Assembly (NCBI GenBank): GCA_965205215.1
Contig: OZ242041.1
Location: 928,001 to 992,000, forward strand
Origin: Nitrosopumilus sp.
Lineage (GTDB): Archaea; Thermoproteota; Nitrososphaeria; Nitrososphaerales; Nitrosopumilaceae
Reading direction: 5' to 3'
DNA length: 64,000 bases
Shown here: in pieces, positions 14,795 through 47,264 of the stretch
How the letters are laid out: every line of letters starts with the position of its first letter
Position numbering within the stretch: the stretch's first letter is position 1
Translations under genes and position numbers: made by a program
Notes under the pieces: generated by a model
What the model saw: only the letters and a program-made list of their open reading frames with translations
Told to the model about the DNA's origin: nothing
Database searches by the model: none

Positions 14795-14860
14795 GATACT
14801 GGTGCGGATTCATGATATGGATGGTTTGTCGCGTGTATGTCACGAATTCGCACCGGTATC
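14795..14860. repeat. 22-bp motif doublet A (inverted arms, 22 nt spacer)
   Basis: GATACTGGTGCGGATTCATGAT-spacer-GTCACGAATTCGCACCGGTATC. Confidence 0.85.
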
Positions 14861-15319
14861 ATGTCAGGTATGGTTTTTATGACATTGCCTACGTTGTACG
14901 GTACGGCTCCCAACAAAAATAACACCGACTGCACGGATGCGACCGACACATTAAATGAACTAACTAGAAATATTTCCAGTGAACCCAACCATGCACAACG
15001 TGTGGAAACCCCTCATCCACAGAATACGGCGAGACAACGCCGACAACCGACACGCGACGGACGCCCCGATGCAGGCACGCGCGCAACCCCCAAAAAGGAG
15101 CCCGCACCCGGACCAACAACCCCGTATGACATACTTGGTCTGTCCGGTACCGCCACGTGCGCCGAAATCAAGACAAGGTACAGGCAGATGGTAAGGGACC
15201 ACGACTCGTCAAGGGGGCGAATAACCAAGACCGTGCAGGAGAGGGAGATCGACGATGCCGCCATGGCCGCGATCAACAGGGCATACTCAGCATTGAAGAA
15301 AAAGCACGGGTGCAAATAA
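14861..15319 (+). CDS. J-domain (DnaJ-like) protein with HPD replaced by HDS
   Basis: TPYDILGL...A...EIKTRYRQMV..HDS...INRAY..L; stop overlaps Hsp70 start (TAATG); start uncertain. Confidence 0.7.
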   Translation: MSGMVFMTLPTLYGTAPNKNNTDCTDATDTLNELTRNISSEPNHAQRVETPHPQNTARQRRQPTRDGRPDAGTRATPKKEPAPGPTTPYDILGLSGTATCAEIKTRYRQMVRDHDSSRGRITKTVQEREIDDAAMAAINRAYSALKKKHGCK

Positions 15320-17352
15320 TGGCCGTACTTGGGATAGACCTTGGCACCAGCAGCTCGGCCGCGGCCGTACTCTTGGACGGCAGGGTACAGATAATACCCA
15401 ATCCGGACGCGGGCACGACAGGCAAGCCCTTCCCGTCCGTAGTGTCGTTTTTCAGGGACGGCAGCTGCCTGATCGGGGCGCCCGCAGAGGAACAAAGGCC
15501 GTACAACCCGCACGGCACCATCTCAAACATAAAACGGGACATGGGAACAACCCGGCAAATTGAAGTCTTTGGAAAAAGCTTCATCCCGCAGTTCATATCC
15601 GCGCTGCTCCTGATGAAGATAAGGCTTGACACGGAGTCGTTCCTGAACGAGAAAGTAACGCAGGCGGTAATCACGATTCCCGCAAACTTTAACGACGCCC
15701 AGCGGCAGGCAACGCTGGACGCCGGCCGCATAGCCGGGCTTGACGTGGTGCGGCTTTTGCAGGAACCGGTGGCCGCCGCAATGTCATACGGACTCCACCA
15801 TCTGGAGGAACCGTCCAGGATTTTGGTGTTTGACATGGGGGCCGGCACGCTTGACGTCTCCATCCTAGAGGTCGATTCCGGGTTTTTCGAGGTCATCTCC
15901 ACGTCGGGTTCGCAGCATGTGGGCGGCATCGGCATGGACGACGCAGTCTCAGAATGGCTTGCCGAGGAACACGAAAGGCAGCACGGCCAAAAGCCCGCCG
16001 CCGCCCAGTCATTGCGGCGCCTGTCCGAACTCGCAACCATGCTCAAGCATGAATTGTCAGAGCGGGACGAGGCCTCGTTTGACGAGGACATACCGATGGC
16101 GTCCCACCTTGCCGGAAAAATCACAAGGGGTGTTTTTGAAAAATTGATTGGCGGCCTGCTGGATGAATGCAGGGATGTAATCATGCAGGCCCTGGACAAT
16201 GCCGGACTGCACGCGGCGGACATCGACAGGGTGGTTCTTGTCGGCGGCCCAAGCAAGGTCCCCTCCGTACGGCGCCTGCTCAGAACCGCCGTAAGGGAGC
16301 CGGAGGACGGGATAGACCCGTATTTTGCCGTCGTTTCCGGCGCCGCCATACAGGGCGGCGTGCTGGCCAACGACAAGAACCTGCCCGAATTATACAACGG
16401 GCTGACACTGCTGGAGGTCACGCCGCTTGACCTGGCAGAGGAGGCCCGGAAAGACGGGAAGATCGTACCGGTGGTCATGATCCCGAAGAACACGCCATAC
16501 CCGACGTTTCACACCGAGACGTTCTACGTGAACAAGCCGCTTCAAACCGAGGTTGAAATCAGGGTCTGGCAGGGGGATTTTGAGGCGAACCCCGGGTTTG
16601 CGGGGAACGTAAGCCTCGGCGCGTTCGTCCTAAGCGGGTTACGCGCCGGATGCCAGAACGAGGTCGAGGTCAGATACGAGTTGAATGACAACGGCATACT
16701 GACCGTGCGCGCCGCGGAAATTGGGGGCGGCGTCAAGGGCGAGCTCACCATTGACAGGATATGGAGCCGCATGGGCGCCGTAGCGGAACTTGGATACGAG
16801 CAGCCGGACGAGCATGCCGGGAATGAGGAGGAAATGAAGTCATATGAAAGCAAGTACCGGGATGTAATGTCCCCGTATGAGATGCCAATAGGCAATCAGC
16901 AGGAGGAAGCCGGCGACGCGGGCATGTCATGGATGTGCGGCAGCCTTGCCGACGCAAAGGACATCATCAGGACGCACCACGCGGACCTGCCGGTCGACTT
17001 TTTTGACACCGCCAGGTTTGAGCTGTTTTTGCAGGATGACATGCAGTATGCGTACGCATACATCCACCTTTCCGGGGGTCCCGTATACCAGATAGGCATA
17101 CACAAGATGTTTGCGGAACACACGCGCGAGACCCAGAGAAGCCTCGTAGTAACACTGGTGCACGAACTCCTGCATGCCGTACACCCCGACTGGGGGCACA
17201 ACAGGATAAGGCCCGAAGAGCGCAGGCTTGCGAACCTTGCGCATTACTTCGACGCATATGTGGAGCATGAACGCATGTTTCTCAGCGGGCGCATGTCGTT
17301 TTGCAACAACACACACACCAGTGTGGACGGGAAGCGCATATCGTGCGGTTGA
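15319..17352 (+). CDS. Hsp70/DnaK-like ATPase fused to C-terminal zincin (HExxH) metalloprotease-like domain
   Basis: GIDLGT, AVITIPANF..QR.AT..AG, EPVAAA, VFDMGAGTLDVS, LVGG..K.P; C-terminal TLVHELLHAVHPDWGH. Confidence 0.85.
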   Translation: MAVLGIDLGTSSSAAAVLLDGRVQIIPNPDAGTTGKPFPSVVSFFRDGSCLIGAPAEEQRPYNPHGTISNIKRDMGTTRQIEVFGKSFIPQFISALLLMKIRLDTESFLNEKVTQAVITIPANFNDAQRQATLDAGRIAGLDVVRLLQEPVAAAMSYGLHHLEEPSRILVFDMGAGTLDVSILEVDSGFFEVISTSGSQHVGGIGMDDAVSEWLAEEHERQHGQKPAAAQSLRRLSELATMLKHELSERDEASFDEDIPMASHLAGKITRGVFEKLIGGLLDECRDVIMQALDNAGLHAADIDRVVLVGGPSKVPSVRRLLRTAVREPEDGIDPYFAVVSGAAIQGGVLANDKNLPELYNGLTLLEVTPLDLAEEARKDGKIVPVVMIPKNTPYPTFHTETFYVNKPLQTEVEIRVWQGDFEANPGFAGNVSLGAFVLSGLRAGCQNEVEVRYELNDNGILTVRAAEIGGGVKGELTIDRIWSRMGAVAELGYEQPDEHAGNEEEMKSYESKYRDVMSPYEMPIGNQQEEAGDAGMSWMCGSLADAKDIIRTHHADLPVDFFDTARFELFLQDDMQYAYAYIHLSGGPVYQIGIHKMFAEHTRETQRSLVVTLVHELLHAVHPDWGHNRIRPEERRLANLAHYFDAYVEHERMFLSGRMSFCNNTHTSVDGKRISCG

Positions 17353-17397
17353 CATCATTTTATGCCTGATTCTCGGCACTCCTACCATAACCTACAA

Positions 17398-17463
17398 GGT
17401 ACCAGTGCGGATTCGTGACATGGATGGTTTGTAGCGTGTATGTCACGAATTCGCACCGGTACC
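17398..17463. repeat. 22-bp motif doublet B (near-identical direct repeat of A)
   Basis: GGTACCAGTGCGGATTCGTGAC-ATGGATGGTTTGTAGCGTGTAT-GTCACGAATTCGCACCGGTACC. Confidence 0.9.
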
Positions 17464-17490
17464 TTGTACGTAAATGTTAATTATTGACGT

Positions 17491-18675
17491 ATGAATAAGG
17501 TTGACATGCGAATCAGCAGAAGAAAAGAATCATGGTTGATTGGCATACGGCTGCGCGGTAGCCTTCGATCCGATGTACGGAATTACATGAACGACGTTCA
17601 GAGTGATTTTCAGGACGAGAAGAGGCGATATCCACACATTACGTTATTTGGACCATTTTCTACGCGCATGGCAGAACGACATCTAATATACACATTAATG
17701 AGCATTGCCAAAAAATATCCTGAAGCGAGGTTTTCAACAGACGGGTTTTCGTCATTTGATAATAGCGGGTGGTTTTCTGAAGGCCGCGGCATTATAATGA
17801 TCAAAATAGTACCCAATGAAGATCTAAAGCGAATGCGGTATGACATTGCGCAAGAACTACTACCACACTGCTCGCAAGAGGGGGAGTATGATCGAGGCAG
17901 CAAGAACGACTTCAAGTTTCACGCTACGTTAGCGATCGGTAGGACTGGAAAACTCTTCAAAGAGATAAACAAGGAACTCAAATCATATGAATTTAAGCAC
18001 GAAGACATCAAACCGGAACTGATCTTGTATCGCAATCAAGCCCCGGTTTTTACATATCTTACAGGACACGATGTTACGCCCACAAGGCCCAGAAACTTGT
18101 ATGCTGATCCCGAAACGAACCAGAAAGTTATGCCATCCTCCCCCTCTCCCACAGATGAGAGCAGACGTAGGGGAGAGATTTTTGTGGTCAGTGACATGCA
18201 TTTTGACCACAAAAATATCATAAAGTACTGCAAAAGGCCGTTCAGATCCGTCTATGATATGAACCGCGCACTGATCGGCAATTGGAACGACAGGGTAAGG
18301 AAGGGTGACAGGGTGTATTATCTCGGCGACATGACATTCGGAGGAAAAAGAGGATCCATTGACTTTTGGCTCTCTAAACTAAACGGGGAGGTGCGATTCG
18401 TACGCGGCAACCACGACACCGATACCATTACGAGGGCGGAGGTAATAGAGGACAGATTTCCCATAAAGTATGGTGACTACGAATTTCTTTTGATGCACGA
18501 TCCTCACAGGCCACCAGACTGGGACGGGTGGATCATACACGGGGACAAGCACAACAACAGCCCCATTAGATACCCACACATCAACAGAAGAAACAAGACG
18601 GTGAACGTTTGCGTAGAATATACCGATTACACCCCGATGAACCTTGACGAGATCATTGCAAAGATTTCCGAGTGA
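17491..18675 (+). CDS. 2H phosphoesterase fused to calcineurin-like metallophosphoesterase
   Basis: PHITL and FHATL (2x HxT); SDMHFDH, LGD, GNHD, MHDP, IHGDKH. Confidence 0.85.
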   Translation: MNKVDMRISRRKESWLIGIRLRGSLRSDVRNYMNDVQSDFQDEKRRYPHITLFGPFSTRMAERHLIYTLMSIAKKYPEARFSTDGFSSFDNSGWFSEGRGIIMIKIVPNEDLKRMRYDIAQELLPHCSQEGEYDRGSKNDFKFHATLAIGRTGKLFKEINKELKSYEFKHEDIKPELILYRNQAPVFTYLTGHDVTPTRPRNLYADPETNQKVMPSSPSPTDESRRRGEIFVVSDMHFDHKNIIKYCKRPFRSVYDMNRALIGNWNDRVRKGDRVYYLGDMTFGGKRGSIDFWLSKLNGEVRFVRGNHDTDTITRAEVIEDRFPIKYGDYEFLLMHDPHRPPDWDGWIIHGDKHNNSPIRYPHINRRNKTVNVCVEYTDYTPMNLDEIIAKISE

Positions 18676-18687
18676 GTATATAATCAC

Positions 18688-19164
18688 GAGCAAAAGTTCA
18701 TGAGCAAGCATTTGCTCTAAACGGAACCTTTATTGATCATACTATAGTGTGACGCAAAAATCTTTGCGACTGTCAGAACTACACGCGCAACCTTTTTTGA
18801 TCACCGGATGCACCGCTTGGCATGGATGAGAAAGACAGAGACTTGTTTATTCGAGCCTACAAGGCGGAACAAGGCCACCTCGTAAGAAATAGAATCCACA
18901 GTCTGCATGCTCAAGATCAACGGATTGAAGGTATCCGAGGTCACCTCGCTGTGTTATTGCTACTCGCGCACCGTATCCGACTGGGTTCGGCGCTTTGACG
19001 AGGACGGACTTGCAGGCCTGAAAGACAGGCCCCACCCGAGCAGGCCGCCAAAGATAACCCTGAAGAAGATCAGGAGGATTATTGCGGTGGGAGGCGGCAT
19101 CACAACGTCAAGGATGCTTAAGAATACCATACGCGAAAGACACGAGGCGTCCTCGTCATTGTAA
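18688..19164 (+). pseudogene. IS630-family transposase N-terminal remnant (frameshifted, truncated) with IS-end-like sequences
   Basis: SRTVSDWVRRFDEDGLAGLKDRPHPSRPPK HTH; upstream part from ATG 18822 is in another frame; no DDE domain. Confidence 0.7.
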
Positions 19165-19204
19165 TTATATCAACACATGAGAATCAGAAGATTTAATTTA
19201 AAAG

Positions 19205-20035
19205 CTATCCAAATTTGGCAATTAGCTGATCAGTAATTACTGTTGCATATTTCTTATAAAGTGAGATTGATTGTTTTAGATAAGAATCTGTAATTTTCAA
19301 TCGAGTATCTTTACCAACATAACCAGTTTTTGATTTATAATGTTTATCGGGATAAAGATTATTGTGAATCAATATGTGTCTTCTGTAAAATCGTTCTTTA
19401 AATTTTCTATAATTTTTATCCTCGGTTAAATTAATTTTAAACCGCTTCTCTAGATATTTAAAAATACCATCTATGTCATATTTAATTATGTTTTTGACAG
19501 CTTTGGATCTCATATCATCAATTAAAGAATTCATATTTTCAGCAGCCAGTATATCTGAAAAAGTAACTTTCATATCGTGGGATTTTAAGATTTGTGGTTT
19601 TATGGTGAAAACAACATTTAACAGATCATCCAAAAATTCTTCAAATGCAGCGATTAGGTAAACCACAGACATCTCTCTGCAAAATCGATGAAATCTGTAA
19701 TGCAATAAATCTAATTCTAAATCTGTGGAGACAAGCTTAACAAGTAATTGTGAATCTGTTGTAAATTTCTGTCGTTTTTCCGGTGGGAGTGAGTTCCATC
19801 GTTTATATCTGGTGTATTCTTTTTTGTCACTCGTAGTCATTTGTCCAAAAATGTTTTTATGTGCCGCAGTATTTTTAGGCGTTACTTGTTCTTTAACAAT
19901 ATGCGCAACTTCTTTGTTTATGTAAGTTAAAACATCCAAAGTAATTATGAAATGATCACGTGGGTAAGTTAATTGTTCTTTTTTTGATTGTTTAGTAGTG
20001 GAACTAATTTTAGCTACTAAGTAACGTTTTGTCAT
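19205..20035 (-). CDS. HEPN-superfamily putative RNase (very AT-rich gene)
   Basis: VVYLIAAFEEFL plus RxxxxH motif (RHILIH); strongly lower GC than host. Confidence 0.65.
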   Translation of the reverse strand: MTKRYLVAKISSTTKQSKKEQLTYPRDHFIITLDVLTYINKEVAHIVKEQVTPKNTAAHKNIFGQMTTSDKKEYTRYKRWNSLPPEKRQKFTTDSQLLVKLVSTDLELDLLHYRFHRFCREMSVVYLIAAFEEFLDDLLNVVFTIKPQILKSHDMKVTFSDILAAENMNSLIDDMRSKAVKNIIKYDIDGIFKYLEKRFKINLTEDKNYRKFKERFYRRHILIHNNLYPDKHYKSKTGYVGKDTRLKITDSYLKQSISLYKKYATVITDQLIAKFG

Positions 20036-20160
20036 GAACGTATTTTAATTTTGTAGTTATTAAATTTTGTATGAGTTCACGTCGTGCCTAGATTTTGACC
20101 AAAAGGTGATCAAACGTTGACTGTACAGATCCAAATAGTGCGTAGACAAGTATAGCTGAG

Positions 20161-20211
20161 GGTACTGATGCGAATTCGTGACATGGCCACCAATCGGGGG
20201 GGGGGGGGGGG
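20161..20211. repeat. 22-bp motif arm C followed by G16 tract
   Basis: GGTACTGATGCGAATTCGTGAC-ATGGCCACCAATC-G16. Confidence 0.85.
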
Positions 20212-20342
20212 CATGGACTGCCGCACGTACAGAGAGGGTAGGCTTCCAAGGCGTCAAAGGTGCCCGGACTGCGGGCGGTTCATACTGCCTATCGAATACA
20301 TCGTCTGGAAGAGTTAAAGCGGAGGGCGTCCGGGAAGGGGGC

Positions 20343-20693
20343 ATGAAGTGCGCCACGTGCGGGGATAGGACAAACGAGCGTTGCCAGAAGTGCAATGCGG
20401 CGTGTTGCACTGTCTGTAAGAGTGAATATGATTACGAAGTCTGCCCGAACTGCAAGCGAATAGTGATCGCAAATGGGTACGTAGATGGGATTTACGACGA
20501 CGGGAAGGAGTATCCTCTAGAGCTGGCCGCTGTTCATACTGTGTTGATGAATATTCAAGTTCTGCTTGGCGCTATGGTAAAGACGAGTCCGGAGACAATG
20601 AAGGCATTGGAAAGTATGAATCCCGACTACACGAGGTTTGTAGATCAGTTACTGAAGTTCAACACAAAGGCACAGGCAGACCCCCCGGAATAG
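20343..20693 (+). CDS. small Cys-rich zinc-finger protein
   Basis: CATC..CQKC..CCTVC..CPNC. Confidence 0.6.
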   Translation: MKCATCGDRTNERCQKCNAACCTVCKSEYDYEVCPNCKRIVIANGYVDGIYDDGKEYPLELAAVHTVLMNIQVLLGAMVKTSPETMKALESMNPDYTRFVDQLLKFNTKAQADPPE

Positions 20694-21065
20694 CCCCCCA
20701 CAGACGCCTTTTTGTCCGCGTGCTTTGAAAACCTACTGCATGCCAAGCCGACGGTCTAGACGGCCTGCACGCCCCCAGAACCGCACGCGGCAGAACAACA
20801 AAACTGCACAGTCCAAGACATCAGAAACGGCCTGACATTATGATCAAACTGTCAGGCTCCGCCATTTTTTCTGAAAACGTTCGTTTTCAGGGGGGTTTAG
20901 CTTTCGTGCCTGCATACGCGATGCAAACACGCAAACACCCCCCCCTTGCACGGTCAAAGATGCCCAAGGATTGCAATGTACACACAATGCAGGCACGAAT
21001 AACGCCATACGTGCGGCCGCAGGCAATGTTTCAATTATCCATACCTAATAGATCATTCGGCATCA

Positions 21066-21188
21066 GATACTGGTACGAATTTGTGACATGGCCATCTAAT
21101 CGGGGGGGGGGGGGGAGGGAAGGGCGGCGGCGGCGGCGGCGGGGCGCCCCGGTTTCTTATACCTATATCACGAATTCGCATCAGTACC
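21066..21188. repeat. 22-bp motif doublet D (GC-rich spacer with G14)
   Basis: GATACTGGTACGAATTTGTGAC ... ATCACGAATTCGCATCAGTACC; the right arm is a near-perfect inverse of arm C. Confidence 0.85.
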
Positions 21189-21230
21189 TTGTTCATAAAC
21201 GTTAATTATTGTCGCGCGGATAGACTGACC

Positions 21231-23582
21231 GTGCAAACTATAAGGGAAACACTGTGGTTGGTTGGCATCAGACTGCGCGGCGACCTGCGGCATGATGCGC
21301 GTAGATACATGGAGGATGTTCAACGAGCTCTTTCAGACGGGGAAAGGCGGTTCCCGTACATTTCACTATTCGGGCCGTTCTCAACGCACATGATGGAACG
21401 GCAGATAATAGATGCAATGATTACAGCGATTGAGGCACACCCGGATGCAAGATTCTCAACAGACGGACTGTCGTCACGCGTCCATAACAAGCGGCTGGCA
21501 CGAGACCGCGGTGCCATAACCATCAAAATAGAACCCAACGAATCATTAAAGCAGATGAGATACGATATTGCGCAGGCGCTGCTTCCAAGCACCCGGGCGA
21601 CAAAGCACGACCACAGCAGCAAGGACGATTTTGAGTTTTACGTTACGCTGGCCGTTGGCAACACCGACAAGCGATTCAAGGACATAAGCGGAGATATCGA
21701 GTTCCTAGAGCTGAAACATGAAGACATCAAGCCGGAGTTGGTTTTATATCGCGGCAAAAAACCGGTCTTCACATATTTGGCAGGGCACGGTGCCACGCCC
21801 GCAAGGCCCAGAGATTTGTATGCCGACCCAGAAACATTCCAACGCAATCCACACCCAAACACAAATCGAGGCCGGAATCACAGGAAGGGCCGTAGGGATG
21901 CCACGGGCCCACAAGCGCGACGGCCTCGACAACCCTCGCCGCGTACTGAAATCCACAACAGGGATACCGGCCCAAGGGGCCTGAAAGGCGTGGCAGGCAT
22001 GAGGGATCTAAAAAACCTCCTAATATCCGACGTGATAAACCCACTCAGGCACCCCGAGCAATTTAAAAAATTCAAGGTTACTATGCCCAACGGCATACTT
22101 CTACACGGTCCACCGGGCTGCGGCAAGACGTTTATCGTCAGAAAGCTGGCCGAGGAGCTAGACTATAATTTTTTTGAAGTGGCGCACTCGGATCTTGCAA
22201 CGCCCTACATACACGGCTCAGTCGGCAACATCGGAAGAGTGTTCTCAGCGGCCCTGGAAAACGCCCCCGCAATCATATTTTTTGACGAGATAAGCGGACT
22301 GATACCAGATAGGTCGAAGGCTTCCAACACCGGCGACATCTACAAGGAGGAAGAGGTCAACGAGTTCCTCATGCAGCTTAACAACGCCGCCGAGAGGAGG
22401 ATACTGGTGGTCGGCGCGACAAACTACGTAGACAGGATGGATCCAGCCGCTTTGAGGCCCGGCAGGTTTGACAAGAAGATATACGTCCCCCCTCCGGACT
22501 TTGAGGCCCGCAGGTCGCTGTTTGAGATAGGGCTAACGGACCGCCCATGCGACAAGAGCGTCGACTCTGATCAGCTGGCGGAACTGACCGAGGGGTTTTC
22601 GTGCGCCGACATCATCAAGGACGCGATTGAATCTTCCGCACGGTTCGCAGTCAATCGGGGCCTAGACGTGATTGGCCAAGACATCATACGCAACGAGATA
22701 GCTCGCATATCGAAAAGAATAAGCGCGAATCGCCACCACGTACAACCCGCGCTACGATCTCGGCTACGCGCGGAAAGTGGCAGTGACGATTCTGGTCCGA
22801 GAGGCTTGGAAGGCGTCGCAGGCATGAAGGAGCTAAAAAACCTCCTAATATCCGACGTGATAAATCCGCTCAAATATCCCGAGAAATTTGAGAAATTCAA
22901 GGTTACGGTGCCCAACGGCATACTTCTACACGGTCCACCGGGCTGCGGCAAGACGTTTATCGTCAGAAAGCTGGCCGAGGAGCTAGACTATAATTTTTTT
23001 GAAGTGGCGCACTCGGATCTTGCAACGCCCTACATACACGGCTCAGTCGGCAACATCGGGCGCGCGTTCTCAGCGGCCCAGGAGGACGCACCTGCAATAC
23101 TCTTCTTTGATGAGATCAGCGGCCTGATTCCAAACAGAAAAAATTCACTAGGCCACAGCGGCACCCACAAGGAGGAAGAGGTCAACGAGTTCCTCATGCA
23201 GCTTAACAACGCCGCCGAGAGGAGGATACTGGTGGTCGGCGCGACAAACTACGTAGACAGGATGGATCCAGCCGCTTTGAGGCCCGGCAGGTTTGACAAG
23301 AAGATATACGTCCCCCCTCCGGACTTTGAGGCCCGCAGGTCGCTGTTTGAGATAGGGCTAACGGACCGCCCATGCGACCAGAATGTCGACTCTGATCAGC
23401 TGGCGGAACTGACCGAGGGGTTTTCGTGCGCCGACATCATCAAGGACGCGATTGAATCTTCCGCACGGTTCGCAGTCAATCGGGATCTGGACGCGATTGA
23501 TCAGAACATCATACGCAACGAGATAGCGCGGATATCAAGGAGAAAAGCCGCACAATCAGCGGATGAATTGGGCAATACATAA
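21231..23582 (+). CDS. inactive 2H domain fused to tandem AAA+ ATPase (CDC48/VAT-like)
   Basis: N-terminus paralogous to 17491 gene but HxT changed to YIS/YVT; two modules with GPPGCGKT, FFDEI, VGATN, DPAALRPGRFD; GTG start chosen. Confidence 0.85.
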   Translation: MQTIRETLWLVGIRLRGDLRHDARRYMEDVQRALSDGERRFPYISLFGPFSTHMMERQIIDAMITAIEAHPDARFSTDGLSSRVHNKRLARDRGAITIKIEPNESLKQMRYDIAQALLPSTRATKHDHSSKDDFEFYVTLAVGNTDKRFKDISGDIEFLELKHEDIKPELVLYRGKKPVFTYLAGHGATPARPRDLYADPETFQRNPHPNTNRGRNHRKGRRDATGPQARRPRQPSPRTEIHNRDTGPRGLKGVAGMRDLKNLLISDVINPLRHPEQFKKFKVTMPNGILLHGPPGCGKTFIVRKLAEELDYNFFEVAHSDLATPYIHGSVGNIGRVFSAALENAPAIIFFDEISGLIPDRSKASNTGDIYKEEEVNEFLMQLNNAAERRILVVGATNYVDRMDPAALRPGRFDKKIYVPPPDFEARRSLFEIGLTDRPCDKSVDSDQLAELTEGFSCADIIKDAIESSARFAVNRGLDVIGQDIIRNEIARISKRISANRHHVQPALRSRLRAESGSDDSGPRGLEGVAGMKELKNLLISDVINPLKYPEKFEKFKVTVPNGILLHGPPGCGKTFIVRKLAEELDYNFFEVAHSDLATPYIHGSVGNIGRAFSAAQEDAPAILFFDEISGLIPNRKNSLGHSGTHKEEEVNEFLMQLNNAAERRILVVGATNYVDRMDPAALRPGRFDKKIYVPPPDFEARRSLFEIGLTDRPCDQNVDSDQLAELTEGFSCADIIKDAIESSARFAVNRDLDAIDQNIIRNEIARISRRKAAQSADELGNT

Positions 23583-23611
23583 CAGCGTGCGCCGCGGGAT
23601 GAGTCGTTGAG

Positions 23612-24871: not shown

Positions 24872-25187
24872 GGAATGCGGTAACTGGTCAGGCCATACCT
24901 ATTTCTCCAGTCGAAGAGATGATCTTCATGCCTCGATTTCGCAATCGCCTGATCACGTGCATAAATTCAAAACTATAAACAAGATTCTCAAGTCACGTTA
25001 ACTAAAGTGCGCCTACGCTGAACCGGGGTTGATTCTGCATTACAATTATGCGCCTGTTTCCACGTATTTGGTGGGACAGAGTCACAACTCTGCAACCTAG
25101 GAATCAGTGTGGAGCCAACGGAGAGGATTTGACAAGCATGAGAACAGGTTGAAATACAGGTTTTCAGGATCTTGAGATGAGAGATAC

Positions 25188-26525: not shown

Positions 26526-26542
26526 ATTAGATATTATGATAA

Positions 26543-26806
26543 TTGAAGTTAGGGCTGGCTCGTCACCTATCTCTAGAGTTCGTCCCTTTTCCTGCTACTA
26601 GGATCCTGTTTGCAATGTCGACGTCTGACTCGGAGGGGATTGACATGAAGACCATCAAGAAGTCTGGTATTGTCCAAGGCACGTTGGCAAAATCGTTGGT
26701 CAGACTTGAGCGCAAGGGGCTAGTGCATCGTTGTGGATATGGAAAGCACAGACTGTCGCTGTCTCTGTTGGGGGAATACCTGAAGAGAAGGATCCCACAG
26801 ATGTGA
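26543..26806 (+). pseudogene. winged-helix C-terminal fragment (archaeal ATPase-like), probably a remnant
   Basis: I.KSGI..GTL...L.RL..KGLV.R...GK..L pattern, no upstream domain. Confidence 0.4.
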
Positions 26807-26877
26807 TGCCACATTTGCGCTACGACATGCAGAGAGAGGAGGGAAGGCGTAAATCCGCTATACCTCAGCCTAGGATC

Positions 26878-26978
26878 TTGCCATCTTTGCCATCTTTGCC
26901 ATCTTTGCCATCTTTGCCATAGTTTGCCATCTTTGCCATCTTTGCCATAGTTTGCCATCTTTGCCATAGTTTGCCATC
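26878..26978. repeat. 9-10 bp tandem repeat (TTTGCCATC/TTTGCCATAG), ~11 copies
   Basis: Directly visible. Confidence 0.9.
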
Positions 26979-37588: not shown

Positions 37589-37868
37589 GCGGTTCCAACT
37601 GCGTGGCCACCGATCTGATTTAAGGGGTTTTTTCTTATCCGTATTCTTTCCTGCCGGCGGCGGGGCCTCTTCAGACTCGGGCGTGTAAGCGCCGGGTTTG
37701 GTGGACGGAGTACGCGGGAATTTGGCAGTCGATTTACGACTCGGTTTACTGTTGCACGTATTACGCTTTGATTCGGTCTTTCCAGGCTTCGTAAAACTGT
37801 TCACTTGTTCGACAAACCCCTTCGGGCCCACTCTTACATCCGGATCGGGCCCGTTGCTCCTGCTTTGG

Positions 37869-38021
37869 TTACTGGCTCTGCTGCTGCTTTTGCTGCTCAC
37901 GCTGCTGGTACTGCAGCACGACTTTGCCGTTTGGAAGCGTGCCTGCAAACGTCCACGCACCGGATATTATCAGGCGCTCCGCGGCATCTGACTCGACTAC
38001 CGTCTGCCTGGCGCATCCTAC
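37869..38021 (-). pseudogene. out-of-frame C-terminal module of integrase 2
   Basis: -1 frame reads RQTVVESDAAERLIISGAWTFAGTLPNGKVVL, similar to the C-terminus of integrase 1 (ESRIVDGEAELL...GWDLVRDLAGERFLI). Confidence 0.55.
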
Positions 38022-39523: not shown

Positions 39524-39775
39524 ATGACGCTGATAGTAAAGACCTCCAGAGGCGCCAAGTACCTGTACTTTCAGGCGGGCCCAAAGTCCCTGTACATTGC
39601 GCCAAAGGACGACCCCTCAAAGGCCAAGACGGAGAACGTGAAAAAGGCCATCGAATACACGCAGGAGAGGATCAAGCACTACAACGAATCCCTTGACGAG
39701 CTTTTGCAGTTTCTTCCGCCCAAAGAGCGCAAACCATATGCCGTACCTAGCAACCGAATTCGCAACAGTACCTAG
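39524..39775 (+). CDS. small basic protein divergent from the integrases (excisionase/accessory candidate)
   Basis: IVKTSRGAKYLYF beta-hairpin plus helix; position. Confidence 0.55.
   Translation: MTLIVKTSRGAKYLYFQAGPKSLYIAPKDDPSKAKTENVKKAIEYTQERIKHYNESLDELLQFLPPKERKPYAVPSNRIRNST
39742..39772. repeat. 22-bp motif arm next to the integrase locus
   Basis: CGTACCTAGCAA-C-CGAATTCGCAACAGTACC is an inverse of arm E plus its flank (41541-41574). Confidence 0.65.
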
Positions 39776-40188
39776 AGACGTGGGGTAACCGTTCAATCTC
39801 TCCCAAAATTTAGGTATAGATTTCACTATAGTCAAGAGCAAAAGTTCATGAGCAAAGATTTGCTCTAGACCGAACTGCCAAGAACTGGTGACCTGTGATA
39901 GGCTGTCAAAAGAGTGACCTAACTACTGTGTCCTAGGACTGGTAAGTTATAGTGGCCTGAAATCCTCTGAAAAGCGGGGAGCTGGAGGATCAGTACTTGT
40001 ACAATAGATCTGACTGCAATGATCGGCAGTATTATAACTGCACTCGTCCATATGATCGCAGAAAATGATTATTACTCTGGAAAAATCAAGGACGGTTGGC
40101 ACCCGTAGCTCATTCGCCCGACAGCTCCCGAATTGGAAGTGGAACCGCCAACAAATATTCTTTTATACGTGTGTGGCGTATCATATTC

Positions 40189-41333: not shown

Positions 41334-41335
41334 TC

Positions 41336-41540: not shown

Positions 41541-41562
41541 GACGCTGGTGCGAATTCGTGAC
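41541..41562. repeat. 22-bp motif arm E
   Basis: GACGCTGGTGCGAATTCGTGAC. Confidence 0.85.
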
Positions 41563-41811
41563 TTGCTAGGTACGACGAGAGACCTGGAAAGCTAGTGTGA
41601 GCTGATCTTCTCTAGAAACTATCTGGGGCCGACTGCATGCGGTGCAGGGCATTAGTTGAAGCCTCCTGCTAGTCCCGCCCTGTGAAAAGCGCAGCCGCGA
41701 TCTTAAAGAGTGTACTGAGAGGACGGTGGGGAAGGGGTGCTATATGGTACTAAGGGCGCTTGTGTCGCGTGACGGTAATGCATACATAGGCACAGGTGCA
41801 ATTTTTGTTGA

Positions 41812-44644
41812 TTGGCAACAACAGAGCCCACGTTGAACGACAGACTGGCAAGCATCTTGGACAGGCGCAGCTGCTGGAGCGCACTGCCGGAACAAACTGA
41901 CGAATTGGAGGACGGCGGGCAGATCGACGTACTGATCAAGGAGCGCGGCTGGCCACACGTGATCATGGAATGCAAGATCGGCAAAAAGCCGGAGGATGTG
42001 GACAAGCGGTTTGACAACACATTCAAGGACAAGACGAAACCCGGCATAGTATTTGAGGTAAAGTATCCGGAATGGCTGCGCCGCGCCGGCGCCGGAAAAC
42101 TTGAGGATGCAACGCTCTGGTACTGCGTATGGTATAACAAGCATACTAGGTTTCCGAAGGACGGTTGGCTAGAAGGTACTGCATACGATCTCGCGACCGC
42201 CGTCCAGTATTCAAGAGAGTTCAAGGGGTATGCGGAGGGTGCAACGAAACTGCATGATGCGGTCATGGAAGCGGCATCCGCAATGAACGTACTGTCGAAG
42301 AAGATACAAAAAAGTATAAGCCACATAATGGAACAGGAGCGATCCATACAGACGCATGCCACTGCAGCCCTCGTGGTCGCGGGCGCGCTGAGGTTCCACG
42401 ATACTGCAGCAGAGTCGCACGATGTCGAGCTGATTGGCAGCATGCTGGACAGCGAGGGTTACATCAACACTGCAAAACTCGTACCCGCGTGGAAGGAGAT
42501 ACTGAAACACGACTACTATCCGATATTCTCATCGGCTCTGCAGATCATAAGCGAACTGCCGCAGGATACGGCCTCGAACATAGTCAGGCTGCTGCACCGC
42601 GCCAACGGCGATCTTGCGCGCATACACCTGAGCAACTCATCCGACCTGTACGGGCAGACATACCAGCAGATAATCTCCGACAGGAAGAAACTGGCCGCAT
42701 TCTATACGAGGCCGCCGTCGGCAGCCCTCTTGGCCGCCGTCTCCGTACCTGACAAATGGCGCGATTCCGAGTCGCTGCGGAATGTGCGCGTCGCGGACTT
42801 TGCATGCGGCACGGGCACGCTGCTACACACCGTCTACAGGCAGCTTGCGGCCAATTATGAGATCGCCTCCGGGCAGCCCATGGCCTCCATGCATTCGCAC
42901 ATGATGGCCAACTGCCTGATTGGCGCCGACGTGCTGCCGATTGCAACCCACCTGACGGCCGCCGTACTGTCAAACACGTATCCAAGGCAGCCGTACGAGC
43001 AGACCCGCATATTCCAGCCCCGGCAGGGGACAACAGACCACAAGATAGGCTCGCTTGAGTGGATAACCGAGAGCGCCAAATTGGATGAGAGCGAGACCCA
43101 TCTTACCGGCGTTGGCGAGCAGGGCACGAGCACGCCGCCGGCGCACGGCTCGTGCCACGTCGTAATCATGAATCCCCCGTATTCCCGCTCGCAGGGACCT
43201 GGGGGACGTACCGGTTCAGGCAGTGATGTCGACGGGGGGGGGGGGAGACCCGGTTCAGTTGTTCACGGCGTTTGGCGCCACCGACAAAGACCGAAGAAAG
43301 ATGGGGGAACGCGCGACCGAGCTGTTCAGGCCGCCGACAAAGACCGTAACCAGAAGGACATACTGCGCGGACAAGCGCGCAGGCCTGGGCACGTTCTTCA
43401 TGGATTTGGCGCACGCCAAGCTCGGGAAGGGCGGGAGCCTGGGCCTCGTCCTGCCGATGACTGCCGCAACCGGCGTAAACTGGAGAAAGTTCCGCAGCAT
43501 CATTGAAACCGAATATACGGATGTGATAGTATTCAGCGGGAGGTTCTCTGCCGACACCGGCATGAAGGAGATCATCATATCGGCCAAGAAACTCAGGGAA
43601 GACGAGGCACCGTCCGGACGCGGGGTGTTCGTGTCCCTGGACAGGCAAATTGACACCATACTGGAGGGTGTCTGCATAGGAAAGGCGGTACGCAATCTAT
43701 CCATGCTGTCGCTTGAGGATGCCATGCAGGGGAGCACGCGCATACTGGTGGGCGATGACGAGATGGGTTCTGCACTCGACTGCCCGTTGCAGGACGGATG
43801 GCATACCGTGGACGCGGCGGACTTTACGCTGCACCAGATCGTGCAGCATTTGAGGCAGGGCAAGCTGTACCTGCCGTACATGTCGTCCCTGCTTGACCTC
43901 GCCACCACCACCATGTCTGAAATTGCGGACGTGGGTCCCTCTGATCTTCAGATTCTCGGAGGCGAGGCCCAGCCGGGAAGGACCACAAGCTATTCCGGAC
44001 CGTTCAACCTGCGTGATTATAATCCACGCAGCACATACTCGACGCTTTGGAGTAACCACAACAAAACCCAGCAGCAGATGATAGTAAGGCCGGACCATAC
44101 ACTGGAGCCGCGTAAAAACTGCAATGTCGACAGCATAAAGAGACTCTGGAGAACCAGATCGAACATACACATGAACGTCACTACCGACACCACGTCCCAG
44201 GCACTGATGATGTCCTATACGAAGAAACCCGTGGTCGGCGGAAGAGCGTGGCCGAGTGTCATCACAAAGAGGAAATACGCCAAGGGGCTTGCTGTCTGGT
44301 GCAATTCAACACTCGGCATACTGTGCAGGTGGGCAATGTCAAACCACCAGCAGGTAGGCAGGAGTACGACATCACGCACCGCCCTGAAGGACCTGCTCGT
44401 TCTGGCGCCGTCCGGACTTGCATTGCTTGGCGAGGTGTTTGACGAGTTTGCCGAAAAGAAGTTTGACCGCATAATGAACCTCTGGAAGGACCCGGTGCGC
44501 ATTGACATGGACACGCATATGCTAAACCGGCTTGGCGTCGGAGGTGTTGACTTGGATGACTTGCGCGTGCGCCTGTGCGCAGAACCATCCATGCATGGAA
44601 GAAGACAGATCACCGAGTTGGAATCTGCACTGGCAGACAACTAA
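41812..44644 (+). pseudogene. type IIG-like restriction-modification fusion (nuclease-N6 MTase-TRD), frameshifted at G12 (43234-43245)
   Basis: IDV...MECK (PD-(D/E)xK), FYT, DFACGTGTL, NPPY; continues in the 43223-44644 frame; G11 or G14 would fuse the frames. Confidence 0.8.
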
Positions 44645-44774
44645 CAGACACTGGTAAGTTAGTGACCTGAAATTTCTGAAAAGTCGGTGATCTAGGCGTG
44701 GGGTTTGGTGGCTGCCTTTGTTGCCGTCTGTATCATGATCGGTCACTTGTTCTTGCCCTCTGGATCCTATCATC

Positions 44775-45103
44775 TCTCAATTCGTCAGTTTGTTCCGGCA
44801 ACGCGCTCCAGCAGCTATATCTGTCTAGAATGCTTGCCAGTTTGCCGTTCAGCATGGATTCTGTTATTGCCCGTCAGCAACAATTGTGCCTGTACCTATG
44901 TATGCAGTACAGTCACGCGACACAAGCGCCGTCAGTACCATCTAGTGTCCTTTCCTTCCACCGCCCTCTCAGCATACTCTTTAAGATCGCGGCTGCGCTT
45001 TTCACAGGGCGGGACTAGCAGGAGGCTTCAACTAATACCTTACACCGTAAGTAGTCGGTCCCAGATAGTTTCCAGAGAAGATCGTCTCCATATAACTTTC
45101 CAG
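44775..45103 (-). repeat. inverted diverged copy of the R-M leader and 5' coding region (41584-41910)
   Basis: e.g. TTAGTTGAAGCCTCCTGCTAGTCCCGCCCTGTGAAAAGCGCAGCCGCGATCTTAAAGAGT in both; encodes LASILDR.SCWSALPEQTDEL then truncates. Confidence 0.85.
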
Positions 45104-45124
45104 TTCCTTTGCCGTGTTTAACAG

Positions 45125-45191
45125 GTCACGACTTCGCACTAGTATCTACGAAAAAGTGCTGGTGCAAATTCGTGATATGGAATCTAGGCAC
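45125..45191. repeat. back-to-back 22-bp motif arms F
   Basis: GTCACGACTTCGCACTAGTATC-8 nt-AGTGCTGGTGCAAATTCGTGAT-ATGGAATCTAGGCAC. Confidence 0.8.
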
Positions 45192-45751
45192 ACCCGCAGG
45201 CACGACGCAATCAGCAAAATGCCCACCGCGGCGGCAGGCATTGTAACCGAGGGCGCCAACAAATGGAAAACCATCATTCAGAACAGCAACCTGTACCTCA
45301 TGGCGACTAACCAGAGGGTCTGATCACGAGAGTGTCGGAGACATCCGTTCTAACCGAAGGCCTGCACGACCAGGTTTGCCATTCTAAAGATGACATCAAC
45401 TATTGTCATTATCTTTTTTGTTCGTTTCATTTTTCTACCTCCTATATGGAGTGGCGATTTTTGCAACCGCCTGAACAACACTTCTTTCCTCAAAATTTAC
45501 TATTCCTGACTTTCTCGATCAGATCCTTGGGGGACTCTGCCACCACTACATCATACTTTATGAGGTAGGTATTAAGCTTGGCTATTGGTTTAAGATGGGT
45601 AAACTTGAGTAAAGATGTGACATGCTGAATCCGCCTCCCGCATCACAGATTCATAGCAGGTTGCGCGGGAAGGCCGTACGGCGCGGATACGGTACTCACT
45701 ACCTACCATGTGGGAGTGCCGGCAATGGGATTAAAATAAGGTGGCAATGCC

Positions 45752-45788
45752 GTGCCTAGATTCCATATCCCAAACTTGCACCAGTACC
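45752..45788. repeat. 22-bp motif arm G with flank inverse to F
   Basis: GTGCCTAGATTCCAT-ATCCCAAACTTGCACCAGTACC. Confidence 0.75.
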
Positions 45789-45978
45789 CAACTAAGAAAA
45801 ACATATTAGTTCGATAGAAGAATTATAGACATGGTTATTGAGAATTACTTTGATATTACATTTCCATACGCAGATTTGATTCTAAATTATAGTGAGAGTC
45901 TAGCACTGGCATATTCTGGTGCGGCACTTTATGCATTAACAAAAAAAAAACGGATAACTCGGAACGATCATGCAATTT

Positions 45979-46269
45979 TTACGCATGACTAAAACGAGTT
46001 AAAAACTCTAGCCCAGCCTTTGTAAGCTGTATTTCGTAAACCATGTAAACACTCCTTCCTCCAACTTGACGGTGTTTACGCCTTATTATGATCTGGCAAG
46101 ATTCTTCTAGATCGCGCGTTATATCATACCACGAACTAATAGGAATGCCTAGTTCTTGTGCCAGACCAGTAGTTTCAGTGAAATCTTCACCTATTTTTAT
46201 AATGAAATTTTTGTCTTTCAGACACTGTAACAGAACTCGTTTATAGTGAAAATATTTCCCTTTTCGCAT
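45979..46269 (-). CDS. small winged-helix-like protein (AT-rich)
   Basis: TGLAQELGI..SSWY.I...LE....I...; Y.I.LT..G..FL. Confidence 0.5.
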   Translation of the reverse strand: MRKGKYFHYKRVLLQCLKDKNFIIKIGEDFTETTGLAQELGIPISSWYDITRDLEESCQIIIRRKHRQVGGRSVYMVYEIQLTKAGLEFLTRFSHA

Positions 46270-46309
46270 TCACAAGTGATGCACCTAGAGATATTTAAAG
46301 CGTATGAGA

Positions 46310-46381
46310 ATCGGTGGTGCGAATTCGTGATGTGGATCAGAGTCTCGACTGAAATCCACATCACAAATTCGCACCAGCACC
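46310..46381. repeat. 22-bp motif doublet H
   Basis: GGTGCGAATTCGTGATGTGGAT ... ATCCACATCACAAATTCGCACC. Confidence 0.85.
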
Positions 46382-46424
46382 TTGCATGATATGACATAAT
46401 AACAAGAAGTACCCATGTGTAACG

Positions 46425-46508
46425 ATGGCAAAAGCCAGTAAAGGATCAGCCGGATGGCCTAGTAAGACCGGCAATCCCTCCGGAAAGGGGAGGGACAACA
46501 ACAACTAG
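46425..46508 (+). CDS. 27-aa microprotein MAKASKGSAGWPSKTGNPSGKGRDNNN
   Basis: Resembles the WPSxTGNPSGGGRxN small-protein motif (from recollection, unverified). Confidence 0.55.
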   Translation: MAKASKGSAGWPSKTGNPSGKGRDNNN

Positions 46509-46811
46509 CAGGGTGCTTTTATCCCCCCCCGTAAGGGGGGCACCCTTTCCAGCAATCAACCTCATGCCATCTGCGATCACGCCTAGCCCGTGCCTGACTC
46601 TACTCAAGTATGTAATTCCCAAAATATTTGAGACTGTTTGAAAGGTGGTGTGGCATGCAGGAGGGCCAATCTGCCCTACTTTTCAGGACGGCCACCGGTT
46701 ACCGGCGGCGGCAAAGGCAGGTCCCCGTTTTGACAGCGGATTACAGGTCACCAGTTCTTGACAACACCCGCCCACGCGACGAGTTATATAGCTGTAAGTG
46801 GTGTTTAAACC

Positions 46812-47087
46812 ATGCATCGGAACATCAGATACTATAGAAACAGCCCTGACTGGAGGCCTTCCCTTGGGGAGGCCATAGACAAGGCTCACTACAGAAACAG
46901 ACACTACCACGCGGTGTGTGATCCGGCCACCGGCGCATGTACAGAACATTATGATAAGCACGACCCTCATGAGTCAATACCGTCCCTTGTGCGACACATG
47001 TGGGACAGCGACCTAGGAAGGTTTGTGTTGGTAGCTCTAGGCATAATCACCGTCGTTGGTACAGCTGCAGTAGCACTGAGAAAGTGA
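46812..47087 (+). CDS. small His-rich protein with C-terminal TM anchor
   Basis: H.DKHDP...L.RH..D then a hydrophobic helix. Confidence 0.5.
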   Translation: MHRNIRYYRNSPDWRPSLGEAIDKAHYRNRHYHAVCDPATGACTEHYDKHDPHESIPSLVRHMWDSDLGRFVLVALGIITVVGTAAVALRK

Positions 47088-47179
47088 CCGTTTCACACTC
47101 CTTTTTTTTCACTACTAAATGAACTCAAGTATACGCCTGATCGTAACGGCTCCCAAATGATATATCTCACACGGCCAAG

Positions 47180-47264
47180 AAATCTGGTACGAATTCGTGA
47201 CTTCACCCATTGAGAATCATGACGTGATGTCTCCTTCTGGAGGTCACGAATTCGCACCAGTACC
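47180..47264. repeat. 22-bp motif doublet I
   Basis: CTGGTACGAATTCGTGAC ... GTCACGAATTCGCACCAGTACC. Confidence 0.85.

Follow-up and report, generated by a model that had tools for sequence, protein, structure and literature searches.

A 22-bp motif in a Nitrosopumilus genomic island is very probably the terminal inverted repeat of an IS6/IS26-like transposon family

The stretch of DNA analysed here, 64,000 nucleotides long and called the window, comprises bases 928001-992000 of a Nitrosopumilus sp. genome that consists of a single contig of 2.098 Mb with 60.3% G+C. The genome is archaeal, matching the archaeal SSU model from end to end with 1459 bits. The window contains a low-GC mosaic stretch that starts on the left at a tRNA-Met gene (13454-13527, plus strand; feature 13454..13660) and lies between the copies of a direct repeat of 147 bp (13514-13660 and 53472-53618, 89% identity). 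Contigs of other strains diverge from it at 13514/13531 and 13648. The tRNA-Met start, the direct repeat and these divergence points fit an integrated, strain-variable island. A genus-wide DNA search with window positions 13600-21900 found no syntenic empty site, and 4 of 120 genomes gave short or partial matches; by this sequence comparison the island would be essentially specific to this lineage. The subject of this report is a 22-bp motif, here called the arm, that recurs in the island from 14795 to 47264. An initial annotation took the arms for sites of an integron-like array driven by tyrosine recombinases, with a gene-mobilising element resembling a miniature inverted-repeat transposable element (MITE) as the alternative.

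The motif is far more frequent than expected by chance. At up to 3 mismatches the 22-mer has 10 matches in the window against 0.00 expected (100 shuffles), and at up to 5 mismatches it has 39 in the genome. A position weight matrix (PWM) trained on these 39 matches and called at 14 bits or more finds 66 arms in the genome and 1 in the reversed-genome null. Eighteen of the arms fall within 14795-47264, on 1.55% of the genome, where 1.02 would be expected (binomial P 9e-18); no PWM arm lies in the window outside these limits. All 16 arms listed in the initial annotation were recovered, the one at 46310 with 15.0 bits and the others with 23.9-36.6 bits. Two more were added, a diverged solo arm at 40125..40146 (minus strand, 19.7 bits) and a doubtful match at 19752..19773 (plus strand, 14.4 bits) inside the open reading frame (ORF) 19205-20035. 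The latter is probably chance, judged by a score that sits at the threshold where the null yields 1 match. The motif had also been called island-restricted, which it is not: 48 of the 66 arms lie outside the window in 25 clusters, though the island is strongly enriched. Arm orientation largely alternates by the PWM strand calls, as had been reported, because most arms pair as inward-facing doublets of 66-123 bp. Four of five doublets fold as hairpins, again as reported (z -4.1 to -8.6), and the G-rich 123-bp doublet has a z of -1.4. The sharp GC contrast of adjoining units is also real (0.59, 0.47, 0.335 and 0.50 across 15-21 kb). The genome as a whole has 14 miniature doublets, 64-169 bp long, in several spacer sub-families; MITE copies are 90-95% identical to one another, not identical.

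The leftmost arms of the island bound a composite unit of 2669 bp (14795-17463). It begins with a 66-bp type A MITE (14795..14860; arms 14795-14816, plus, and 14839-14860, minus; 22-nt spacer), which scores 27.8 and 32.8 bits, has a hairpin z of -4.1 and has a 95% identical copy at genome 86574-86629. It ends with a second type A copy of 66 bp (17398..17463; arms 17398-17419, plus, and 17442-17463, minus; 28.6 and 34.3 bits). The two are 92% identical with the spacer in the same orientation, that is, they are direct repeats. Between them lie a J-domain ORF (14861-15319) and an Hsp70 gene (15157-17352), which match DnaJ and HSP70 (8.9e-115). The unit is flanked by TTGTACGT at 14787-14794 and again at 17464-17471, an 8/8 match at offset 0, so that the feature with its duplication spans 14787..17471. 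The junctions can be read directly as ...ctagag TTGTACGT / doublet / cargo / doublet / TTGTACGT aaatg....

Further right, a solo arm at 20161..20182 (plus, 34.9 bits) overlaps the start of ORF 20178-20693. It is half of a type C MITE; the arm and its inner 22 nt match the minus end of an 85-bp MITE at genome 1982408-1982492. A complete type C MITE of 123 bp with a G/GGC-rich centre lies at 21066..21188 (arms 21066-21087, plus, and 21167-21188, minus; 30.4 and 34.9 bits), its tip abutting the region upstream of the 2H-AAA gene 21189-23582. The centre of this MITE (21088-21166) is a G-run followed by (GGC)n and has expanded in comparison with the copy of 85 bp at genome 1982408-1982492; the solo arm at 20161 is followed by a G-run of like kind (20183-20210). 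The homology between 17439-18116 and 21164-21835 begins at an arm. Another solo arm (39751..39772, minus, 23.9 bits) lies at the 3' end of ORF 39524-39775, 320 bp from an integrase-like gene.

The right part of the array is denser. A transposase-less cassette of 3606 bp (41541..45146; arms 41541-41562, plus, and 45125-45146, minus; 28.5 and 28.9 bits) carries ORFs 41812-43506 and 43223-44644, and its arms head inverted terminal repeats of 363 nt (41545-41907 and 44778-45142, 82-84%). No duplication flanks the cassette at 41541-45146. An 8-bp spacer, TACGAAAA (45147..45154), separates its right tip from the facing tip of the next unit, and is at the same time the left duplication copy of a composite unit of 2110 bp (45155-47264; 45155..47272 with its right flank). 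The right copy of that duplication is TACGAAAT (47265-47272), a 7/8 match at offset 0. The unit starts with an internally deleted insertion sequence (IS) derivative of 634 bp (45155..45788; arms 45155-45176, plus, and 45767-45788, minus; 30.1 and 25.1 bits). This holds ORF 45332-45568 and, just inside the arm at 45155, a remnant of a transposase C-terminus (45180-45320) that is 68% identical to residues 263-309 of the transposase described below (E 7e-15); positions 45156-45323 are 95% identical to genome 652705-652870. A 72-bp MITE follows at 46310..46381 (arms 46310-46331, plus, and 46360-46381, minus; 15.0 and 32.4 bits; hairpin z -8.1), and homology between 46361-46769 and genome 653823-654230 begins exactly at the inner edge of its minus arm. 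The unit closes with an 85-bp MITE (47180..47264; arms 47180-47201, plus, and 47243-47264, minus; 23.9 and 36.6 bits; hairpin z -6.2) that lies just upstream of a PDC-M33A-like gene (47308-48387).

The arms match the ends of a known transposon family. The arm consensus, GGTACTGGTGCGAATTCGTGAC, agrees with the IS6/IS26 terminal inverted repeat (TIR) consensus, GGTTCTGTTGCAAA, at 11 of 14 positions and single arms agree at 11-13 of 14; the arm at genome 861924 agrees at 13 and a copy in one relative (G014) at all 14. In the family, the positions G1, G2 and G7 of GGTTCTGTTGCAAA are almost universal (Harmer and Hall 2019, PMC6807381). The arms have this signature of GG tips and G7, with PWM frequencies of 0.89 for G1, 0.79 for G2, 0.96 for C5, 0.74 for T6, 0.77 for G7, 0.94 for T9, 0.84 for G10, 0.84 for C11, 0.89 for A13 and 0.91 for A14. 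Conservation extends over ~22 bp and resumes in a second inner block, ..AGGCACGG..; archaeal IS6 TIRs are described as conserved to at least 18 bp (PMC6807381).

The arms also bound a transposase gene, which is outside the window. The arms of a 3851-bp unit at genome 437752-441602 do not differ over a stretch of more than 30 nt, and a perfect 8-bp duplication flanks the unit. Its largest ORF (genome 438196-439125, minus strand) encodes an apparently intact 309-aa transposase that scores 44.9 bits against Pfam PF13610, DDE_Tnp_IS240 (cut-off 27). Among NCBIfam models, that of the IS6 family transposase ranks first (E 1.4e-30, aligned over positions 1-199 of the 202 in the profile). The protein has an N-terminal CxxC...CxxC zinc ribbon, and C14, C17, C40, C43, D124-E125, D184 and E233 are invariant across six homologues, the transposase itself and five others at 50-82% identity. 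By sequence it is classed as a divergent, archaeal-type enzyme. A whole-genome search found no second IS6-like DDE transposase gene. The passengers of the unit are a methylase-HNH gene (genome 439790-441013) and a tRNA-Arg(ACG) of 88 nt (genome 438021-438108, minus strand), the latter between the transposase stop and the arm. Genes for tRNA-Arg GCG, TCG, CCG and TCT are also present elsewhere in the genome, and the unit-borne ACG tRNA is thus an extra, transposon-borne one. Rfam searches of three arm-bearing loci found only this tRNA-Arg.

IS6-family elements generate 8-bp target repeats, and a lack of such flanking repeats is common (Varani et al. 2021, PMC7986276). The 8 bases just outside each arm tip were compared in all 37 inward-facing arm pairs of up to 8 kb in the genome. 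Three pairs agree at 8/8, three at 7/8, two at 6/8 and 29 at 5/8 or less; in 3700 displaced-flank control comparisons, 7/8 or better occurred in 0.05% and 8/8 in none. The perfect cases are the transposase unit (CAATCAGC), the J-domain/Hsp70 unit and a unit of 1422 bp at genome 1367805-1369226 (TAAAAAGA). The 7/8 cases are the 85-bp doublet at genome 1982408-1982492 (CTGTATGC / CCGTATGC), a unit of 2646 bp at genome 1143376-1146021 (CTTTTCTG / CTTTTCTT) and the 2110-bp unit of the window. Over all genomes there are 11 perfect duplications, 4 in the source genome (G000) and 7 elsewhere. Their 88 bases have 41% G+C (hand count) against 60% in G000, which suggests that insertions favour AT-richer intergenic DNA or are tolerated there. 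In addition, inspection by eye showed an AT-rich TATA-like box recurring beyond arm tips at a distance of ~10-25 nt, in many cases with a start codon ~26 nt downstream of the box (window 17464-17490 and 47265-47300; genome 1577062 and 1982493). Going by these positions, promoter-proximal DNA may be a preferred or a tolerated place for arm insertions, which could alter expression.

The spacing of neighbouring units is regular. All four tip-to-tip arm pairs seen, from three genomes, have gaps of 7-8 bp (8, 8, 8 and 7 bp); they are window 45146|45155 and one each in the loci L045, L077 and L046. At 45146|45155 the 8-mer between the tips recurs at the far end of the right-hand unit (7/8).

Strains differ at the arms. 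Contigs of four public runs were aligned to window 12000-28000; sponge metagenomes are among the runs in which the region is found. A contig of depth 348 in X1, which is a sponge metagenome from another study, has 14567 followed, after 89 other letters, by 17471 and is therefore without the J-domain/Hsp70 unit; 17471 is the final base of the right-hand TTGTACGT duplication. A second X1 contig (depth 472) covers the cargo, 14826-17440, and ends inside both doublets. In X8 a contig of depth 4.4 spans 13514-18319 with the unit, and one of depth 54 diverges exactly before 17471. Contigs of X1, X7 and X8, from three studies, join 18675/18676/18681 to 21189, in X7 with 479 letters between. The segment 18677-21188 is thus replaced, and the breakpoint is the first base beyond the arm tip at 21188. 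The expectation that cargo varies between strains with breakpoints at arms, here 17471 and 21189, was therefore borne out, as predicted by transposon insertion polymorphism. The evidence consists of assembled contigs in which the replacing letters were not read, so a clean empty site is not demonstrated.

Similar elements are found in other genomes. A degenerate arm pattern is present in 22 of 120 other genomes of the genus, with no hit to the reversed pattern in any; the highest counts are 30 (G104), 14 (G062), 12 (G122) and 8 (G117). Four of the five arm-richest genomes have transposase homologues, full-length and 73-82% identical in G122 and G104; no homologue was found in G047 at E 1e-10. 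Public metagenome-assembled genomes (MAGs) titled Nitrosopumilaceae, Nitrosopumilus sp. or Thaumarchaeota carry the same arm variant (7 of 9 loci). Four transposase-bearing units were read in relatives. In G122, L076 (2923 bp, 8/8) has two ORFs without a Pfam family, and L079 (4071 bp, 8/8) carries an EcoRI-type methylase (3.8e-132) with GmrSD_N-HNH. In G104, L077 (4130 bp, 7/8) carries an N6_N4 methylase and an MvaI/BcnI endonuclease, and L078 (3855 bp, 8/8) a methylase-HNH fusion. Passengers of the restriction-modification (R-M) type are thus present in 4 of 5 transposase-bearing units examined, the fifth having ORFs without a family.

Among the MAG loci, L044 has a unit at 458-2347 with an 8/8 duplication. 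L046 has nested and tandem units: 1751-4338 (8/8), 2545-3865 (8/8, with a nucleotidyltransferase ORF) and 1843-2537 (7/8, with a HicB-like ORF). Transposase C-terminus remnants lie ~16-20 bp from an arm in four external loci (L039, L041, L045 and L046). An arm-pattern scan of metagenome contigs gave 15 loci, 14 with a single arm and one with a pair at a 3/8 flank match. Around distant, low-GC transposase homologues (L011-L017 and L021), a repeat and 16-mer scan found clear terminal repeats only in L013. The EcoRI-type methylase in a relative's element, together with GAATTC in the arm core, had suggested a link between the arms and methylation, which was rejected. G000 has no PF13651 match, the arms of that relative itself read CAAATTCG, and the genome shows no avoidance of GAATTC (observed/expected 1.11; 55th in rank among 64 palindromes), with 21 of its 226 sites in arms.

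Three of the four TnpB genes of the source genome sit in units of 1.4-1.5 kb bounded by IS6-like arms, with TnpB (Cas12f1-like TNB/OrfB_IS605) as the sole passenger. These are genome 1367805-1369226 (L034:805-2226), 1592654-1594174 and 2065414-2066934. Two have perfect 8-bp duplications (TAAAAAGA and TCGCCAAG) and the third matches at 3/8. In G062, two TnpB units have high-scoring arms, L082:426-1887 (CTATTTAG, 8/8) and L081:1289-2683 (5/8). The Y1 transposase TnpA (PF01797) is absent from the source genome at E 0.01; 6 of 14 control genomes have a match. TnpB with DDE transposons and symmetrical inverted ends has already been described (Altae-Tran et al. 2023, PMC10691335). The associations reported there, DDE-1 to DDE-6, are alike in having inverted ends around TnpB and solo TnpB amid transposon ends. 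They differ from the present units, which have IS6-like ends and 8-bp duplications and whose DDE gene lies at a separate genomic locus; the portion of that paper available to us names IS630 for DDE-6, and an IS6-like partner was not seen in it. The IS6-like TnpB units are probably a further member of this association.

Together, these observations make it very probable that a thaumarchaeal DDE transposon family resembling IS6/IS26 has the 22-bp motif as its TIR, and that the arms of the window belong to non-autonomous elements moved in trans. The gene-mobilising MITE-like alternative of the initial annotation is accordingly the one upheld, in the form of IS6-like MITEs, cassettes and composite units with TIRs, a transposase and duplications. 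The elements have the attributes of MITEs and mobile insertion cassettes, namely IS-like inverted ends, a transposase elsewhere and duplications in some. The remaining ~65 arms of the genome are parts of derivatives of this kind: doublets, cassettes with passengers (methyltransferase-like, TnpB), composite units, one internally deleted IS and solo arms.

The resemblance to IS6/IS26 elements (IS26, IS257, IS6100) includes the DDE_Tnp_IS240/IS6-type transposase, the GG tips, G7 and the ..CTG.TGC.AA.. core, the 8-bp duplication, direct-repeat brackets, end-punctuated arrays and the frequent lack of duplications. Flanking copies of IS6 compound transposons are directly repeated (PMC7986276), and the type A MITEs around J-domain/Hsp70 are likewise direct copies, as in an IS26-type pseudo-compound transposon. 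There are differences as well: the zinc ribbon, a score below the equivalog cut-off, the ~22-bp TIR with its inner block, autonomous copies with mostly R-M passengers, and brackets that are 66-bp MITEs rather than full IS copies. The host is thaumarchaeal, a lineage not among the archaeal clades named in the available portions of PMC7986276 and PMC6807381.

Several points weigh against this assignment. The transposase scores 106.5 bits, below the NCBI IS6 equivalog cut-off of 125, and Harmer and Hall (PMC6807381) consider that archaeal 'IS6' elements may deserve a family of their own; given the divergence of the transposase, strict IS6 family membership is arguable. The autonomous units, at 2.9-4.1 kb with passengers, are unlike the ~0.8-kb single-gene IS of the family: all five transposase units have extra ORFs and measure 2923-4130 bp, and none is a small single-gene IS of ~0.7-0.9 kb. 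The 29 of 37 arm pairs at 5/8 or less, many of them non-cognate combinations, show no duplication, nor do short doublets at genome 86570 and, with 2/8, 1/8 and 0/8, at L069 of G122, L043 and L045. X1 does not show a precise empty site, as 89 unread nt replace 14568-17470 and the left breakpoint, 14567, is 227 bp from an arm. Arms and integrase-like genes are found together more often than expected, 4 of 9 integrase-like loci having an arm within 3 kb against 1.06 expected (P ~0.017). Finally, the MITEs that end at homologous sites ahead of two 2H paralogues (17463 and 21188) are of different types, which the transposon model explains solely by target preference or arm-mediated exchange.

A mechanism can be proposed on the pattern of IS26. 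The single transposase would bind any inward-facing arm pair in trans and insert the segment between with staggered 8-bp cuts. New units would land preferentially in the 8 bp abutting a resident arm tip, a targeting suggested by the 7-8-bp gaps in 4 of 4 tip-to-tip pairs. End-adjacent targeting, combined with tolerance of insertions in accessory DNA, would build arrays of cargo punctuated by arms. Units without duplications would stem from intramolecular events or recombination between arms, as described for IS26 (PMC7986276), and homologous segments that begin exactly at arms may reflect intramolecular events or arm-mediated exchange. Transposition may be replicative, through cointegrates as in IS26, or cut-and-paste; the direct flanking copies, the units lacking duplications and the 7-8-bp gaps between tips bear only indirectly on replicative transposition and on a targeted conservative reaction.

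Tentatively, and with less than even confidence, the family may be seen as a shuttle for defence and selfish genes and as an array-builder, in which the autonomous copies carry R-M genes and a swarm moved in trans by the one transposase (Hsp70/J-domain, methyltransferase-like, toxin-antitoxin-like and TnpB cargo) inserts into the 8 bp beside resident ends. An alternative is that the arms are passive relics, IS6-like ends that accumulated in dispensable DNA and were arranged into arrays by homologous recombination and island exchange, with no targeting and no present transposition. The single transposase gene, the many diverged arms (14-25 bits), the lack of duplications at most doublets and the 90-95% identity of MITE copies agree with this, and relaxed selection alone predicts the island enrichment. 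Decay does not predict tip-to-tip gaps of 7-8 bp in 4 of 4 cases. The identical arms and perfect duplication of the transposase unit, the strain polymorphism exactly at arm tips in three studies and the nested and tandem insertions with intact duplications in L046 also speak for activity, and the passive account is considered unlikely, though not negligible.

The reading of the arms as analogues of attC and attI, recombined by tyrosine recombinases of the island that capture and shuffle cassettes, starts from two tandem, divergent integrase-like genes on the minus strand (36107-37960, 617 aa, and 38018-39430, 470 aa). They are 42% identical paralogues from a large thaumarchaeal family (3435 matches at E <= 1e-5) sometimes named site-specific integrase by NCBI. 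By eye, their sequences show what look like recombinase motifs. No PF00589 match was found in the window at E 0.01, these two included, and the XerA/integron-integrase NCBIfam model gives 19.3 bits against a cut-off of 220. A sequence search of the PDB gave no match for the 617-aa protein; for the 470-aa protein the matches were confined to TAL-effector repeats and were repeat-like, none of their stretches passing alone. The "integrase/excisionase pair" of the initial annotation stands in part: the integrase-like genes are real but divergent, and the 83-aa "excisionase" ORF (39524-39775) matched no family. This ORF has kin of 76-96 aa at genome 863102-863392 and 439355-439585, with a weak DUF7922 match (E 0.0048); ORFs of this kind recur beside integrase-like genes and also inside the transposase unit.

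In favour of an integron-like system are the two integrase-like genes in the island with one arm 320 bp away, the excess of integrase-like loci with an arm within 3 kb, the hairpins of the doublets and the cargo variation at arms. The outcome is also like that of integron cassettes, in which short structured repeats delimit promoter-poor cargo that varies between strains. Against it, site-specific recombination leaves no duplications, and 8-bp duplications flank arm-bounded units in four genomes. The arms fit the TIR consensus of IS6 and have DDE transposase genes between them. They form inverted pairs in both orientations rather than one attC-like site per cassette in a single orientation without duplication, and there is no IntI-type recombinase next to an attI and a cassette promoter (Pc). 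For 56 of the 66 arms the nearest integrase-like gene is over 5 kb away, and no arm lies within 8 kb of 5 of the 9 integrase-like loci of the genome. The initial annotation had itself named two outcomes that would tell against an integron-like array: a motif scattered irrespective of integrases, which is what the genome has, and a fixed cargo without breakpoints at arms, which it does not have. The array driven by tyrosine recombinases is thus not upheld and has a very low probability. The proximity of arms to integrase-like genes is read as co-residence in mobile DNA, not dependence, and the integrase-like pair is not taken to be the enzyme acting on the arms.

It is equally improbable that the arms are operator or activator sites of a transcription factor that co-regulates the defence genes of the island, with the palindromic core CGAATTCG as its dimer site. 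By eye, many arms lie 10-25 nt from a TATA-like box and just upstream of gene starts (17463 and 47264, for example), and in bacteria hybrid promoters formed by IS6-family ends are known (PMC6807381). Duplications, transposase-bounded copies, strain polymorphism and doublets with conserved spacers copied across the genome and across species are signs of mobility, unlike operators, and no candidate regulator was identified. Regulatory side-effects of arm insertions are possible as a secondary matter. Repetitive extragenic palindromes (REP/REPIN) mobilised by a RAYT (Y1/HUH) transposase, with which the short hairpin-forming doublets scattered in intergenic DNA might be compared, can practically be dismissed, as the genome has 0 matches to Y1_Tnp (PF01797) at E 0.01, REPINs make no 8-bp duplications and the arms are IS6-like.

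The IS6/IS26-like assignment thus replaces the idea of an archaeal integron with a testable one based on a DDE transposon, in which much of the mosaicism and strain variation of a defence island in an uncultured sponge-associated ammonia oxidiser goes back to one transposase with its 22-bp ends. As in MITEs and mobile insertion cassettes (described in PMC3129680), the elements have IS-like ends, no transposase of their own, duplications, a transposase acting in trans and, in the cassettes, passengers. As of 2020, no more than two MITEs (227 and 336 bp) had been catalogued for the IS6 family, and just one listed member carries a passenger (PMC7986276); here 14 doublets occur in one genome and some bracket a composite unit. 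Literature searches of limited coverage, on IS6-type MITEs in Thaumarchaeota or sponge symbionts and on archaeal mobile insertion cassettes, turned up no paper in which this family is described. Relative to the parts of the literature considered, the abundance of MITEs, their use as brackets, the R-M passengers and the thaumarchaeal host appear to be new, and the IS6/IS26 field gains a lineage with abundant miniature and cargo derivatives, R-M carriers and MITEs in place of IS copies as brackets. The 8-bp tip-to-tip spacing hints at end-adjacent targeting and could explain the growth of accessory arrays. If the shuttle and array-building role is true, the family would parallel the resistance arrays of IS26 in an archaeal, MITE-based form, would be analogous to integrons in function while driven by DDE transposition, and would contribute to building defence islands in the symbionts of sponges. 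In Nitrosopumilaceae genomes the arms are best labelled as transposon ends, since they coincide with breaks in assemblies and with junctions of horizontal transfer.

The cargo labels given initially were confirmed in part. DnaJ with HSP70, 2H (2_5_RNA_ligase2) with Metallophos, and DUF6338 have family matches. The R-M label has a weaker one, ORF 41812-43506 resembling a methyltransferase of Type IIG kind (PADLOC REase_MTase_IIG, 4.9e-8). For the winged-helix label the sole match was YjcQ at E 0.0055, and the HEPN and Zn-finger labels were not verified. The ORF labelled GHKL, 47308-48387, matches PADLOC PDC-M33A instead (5.7e-67), and GHKL was not verified. An Rfam search of the window matched only a tRNA.

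The right end of the island (47308-53146) has the PDC-M33A-like gene, DUF6339 with PAPS_reduct (DndC-like) and DndB (2e-36), and may on these matches be a DNA phosphorothioation-type defence module. Three paralogous 2H-phosphoesterase genes lie within 17491-24871. In 17491-18675 the N-terminal part is 67% identical to 21164-21835 and the C-terminal part 79% identical to 24368-24872; from these identities it appears to derive from the two-gene block 21189-24871 by fusion or deletion. The 797-aa protein of the 2H region has two AAA modules and strong similarity to PADLOC IetA (2.2e-58). An unrelated transposase of the IS5/IS4 type (DDE_Tnp_1, E 3.3e-19) is encoded at 32087-33280 on the minus strand, and a copy, 1.5 kb long and 88% identical, lies at genome 1584603-1586095. 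ORF 29014-30234 contains a perfect tandem repeat (29411-29847) with a period of 51 bp (shifted self-matches are 100% identical), which has kin at genome 905124-905274 and 1125021-1125093.

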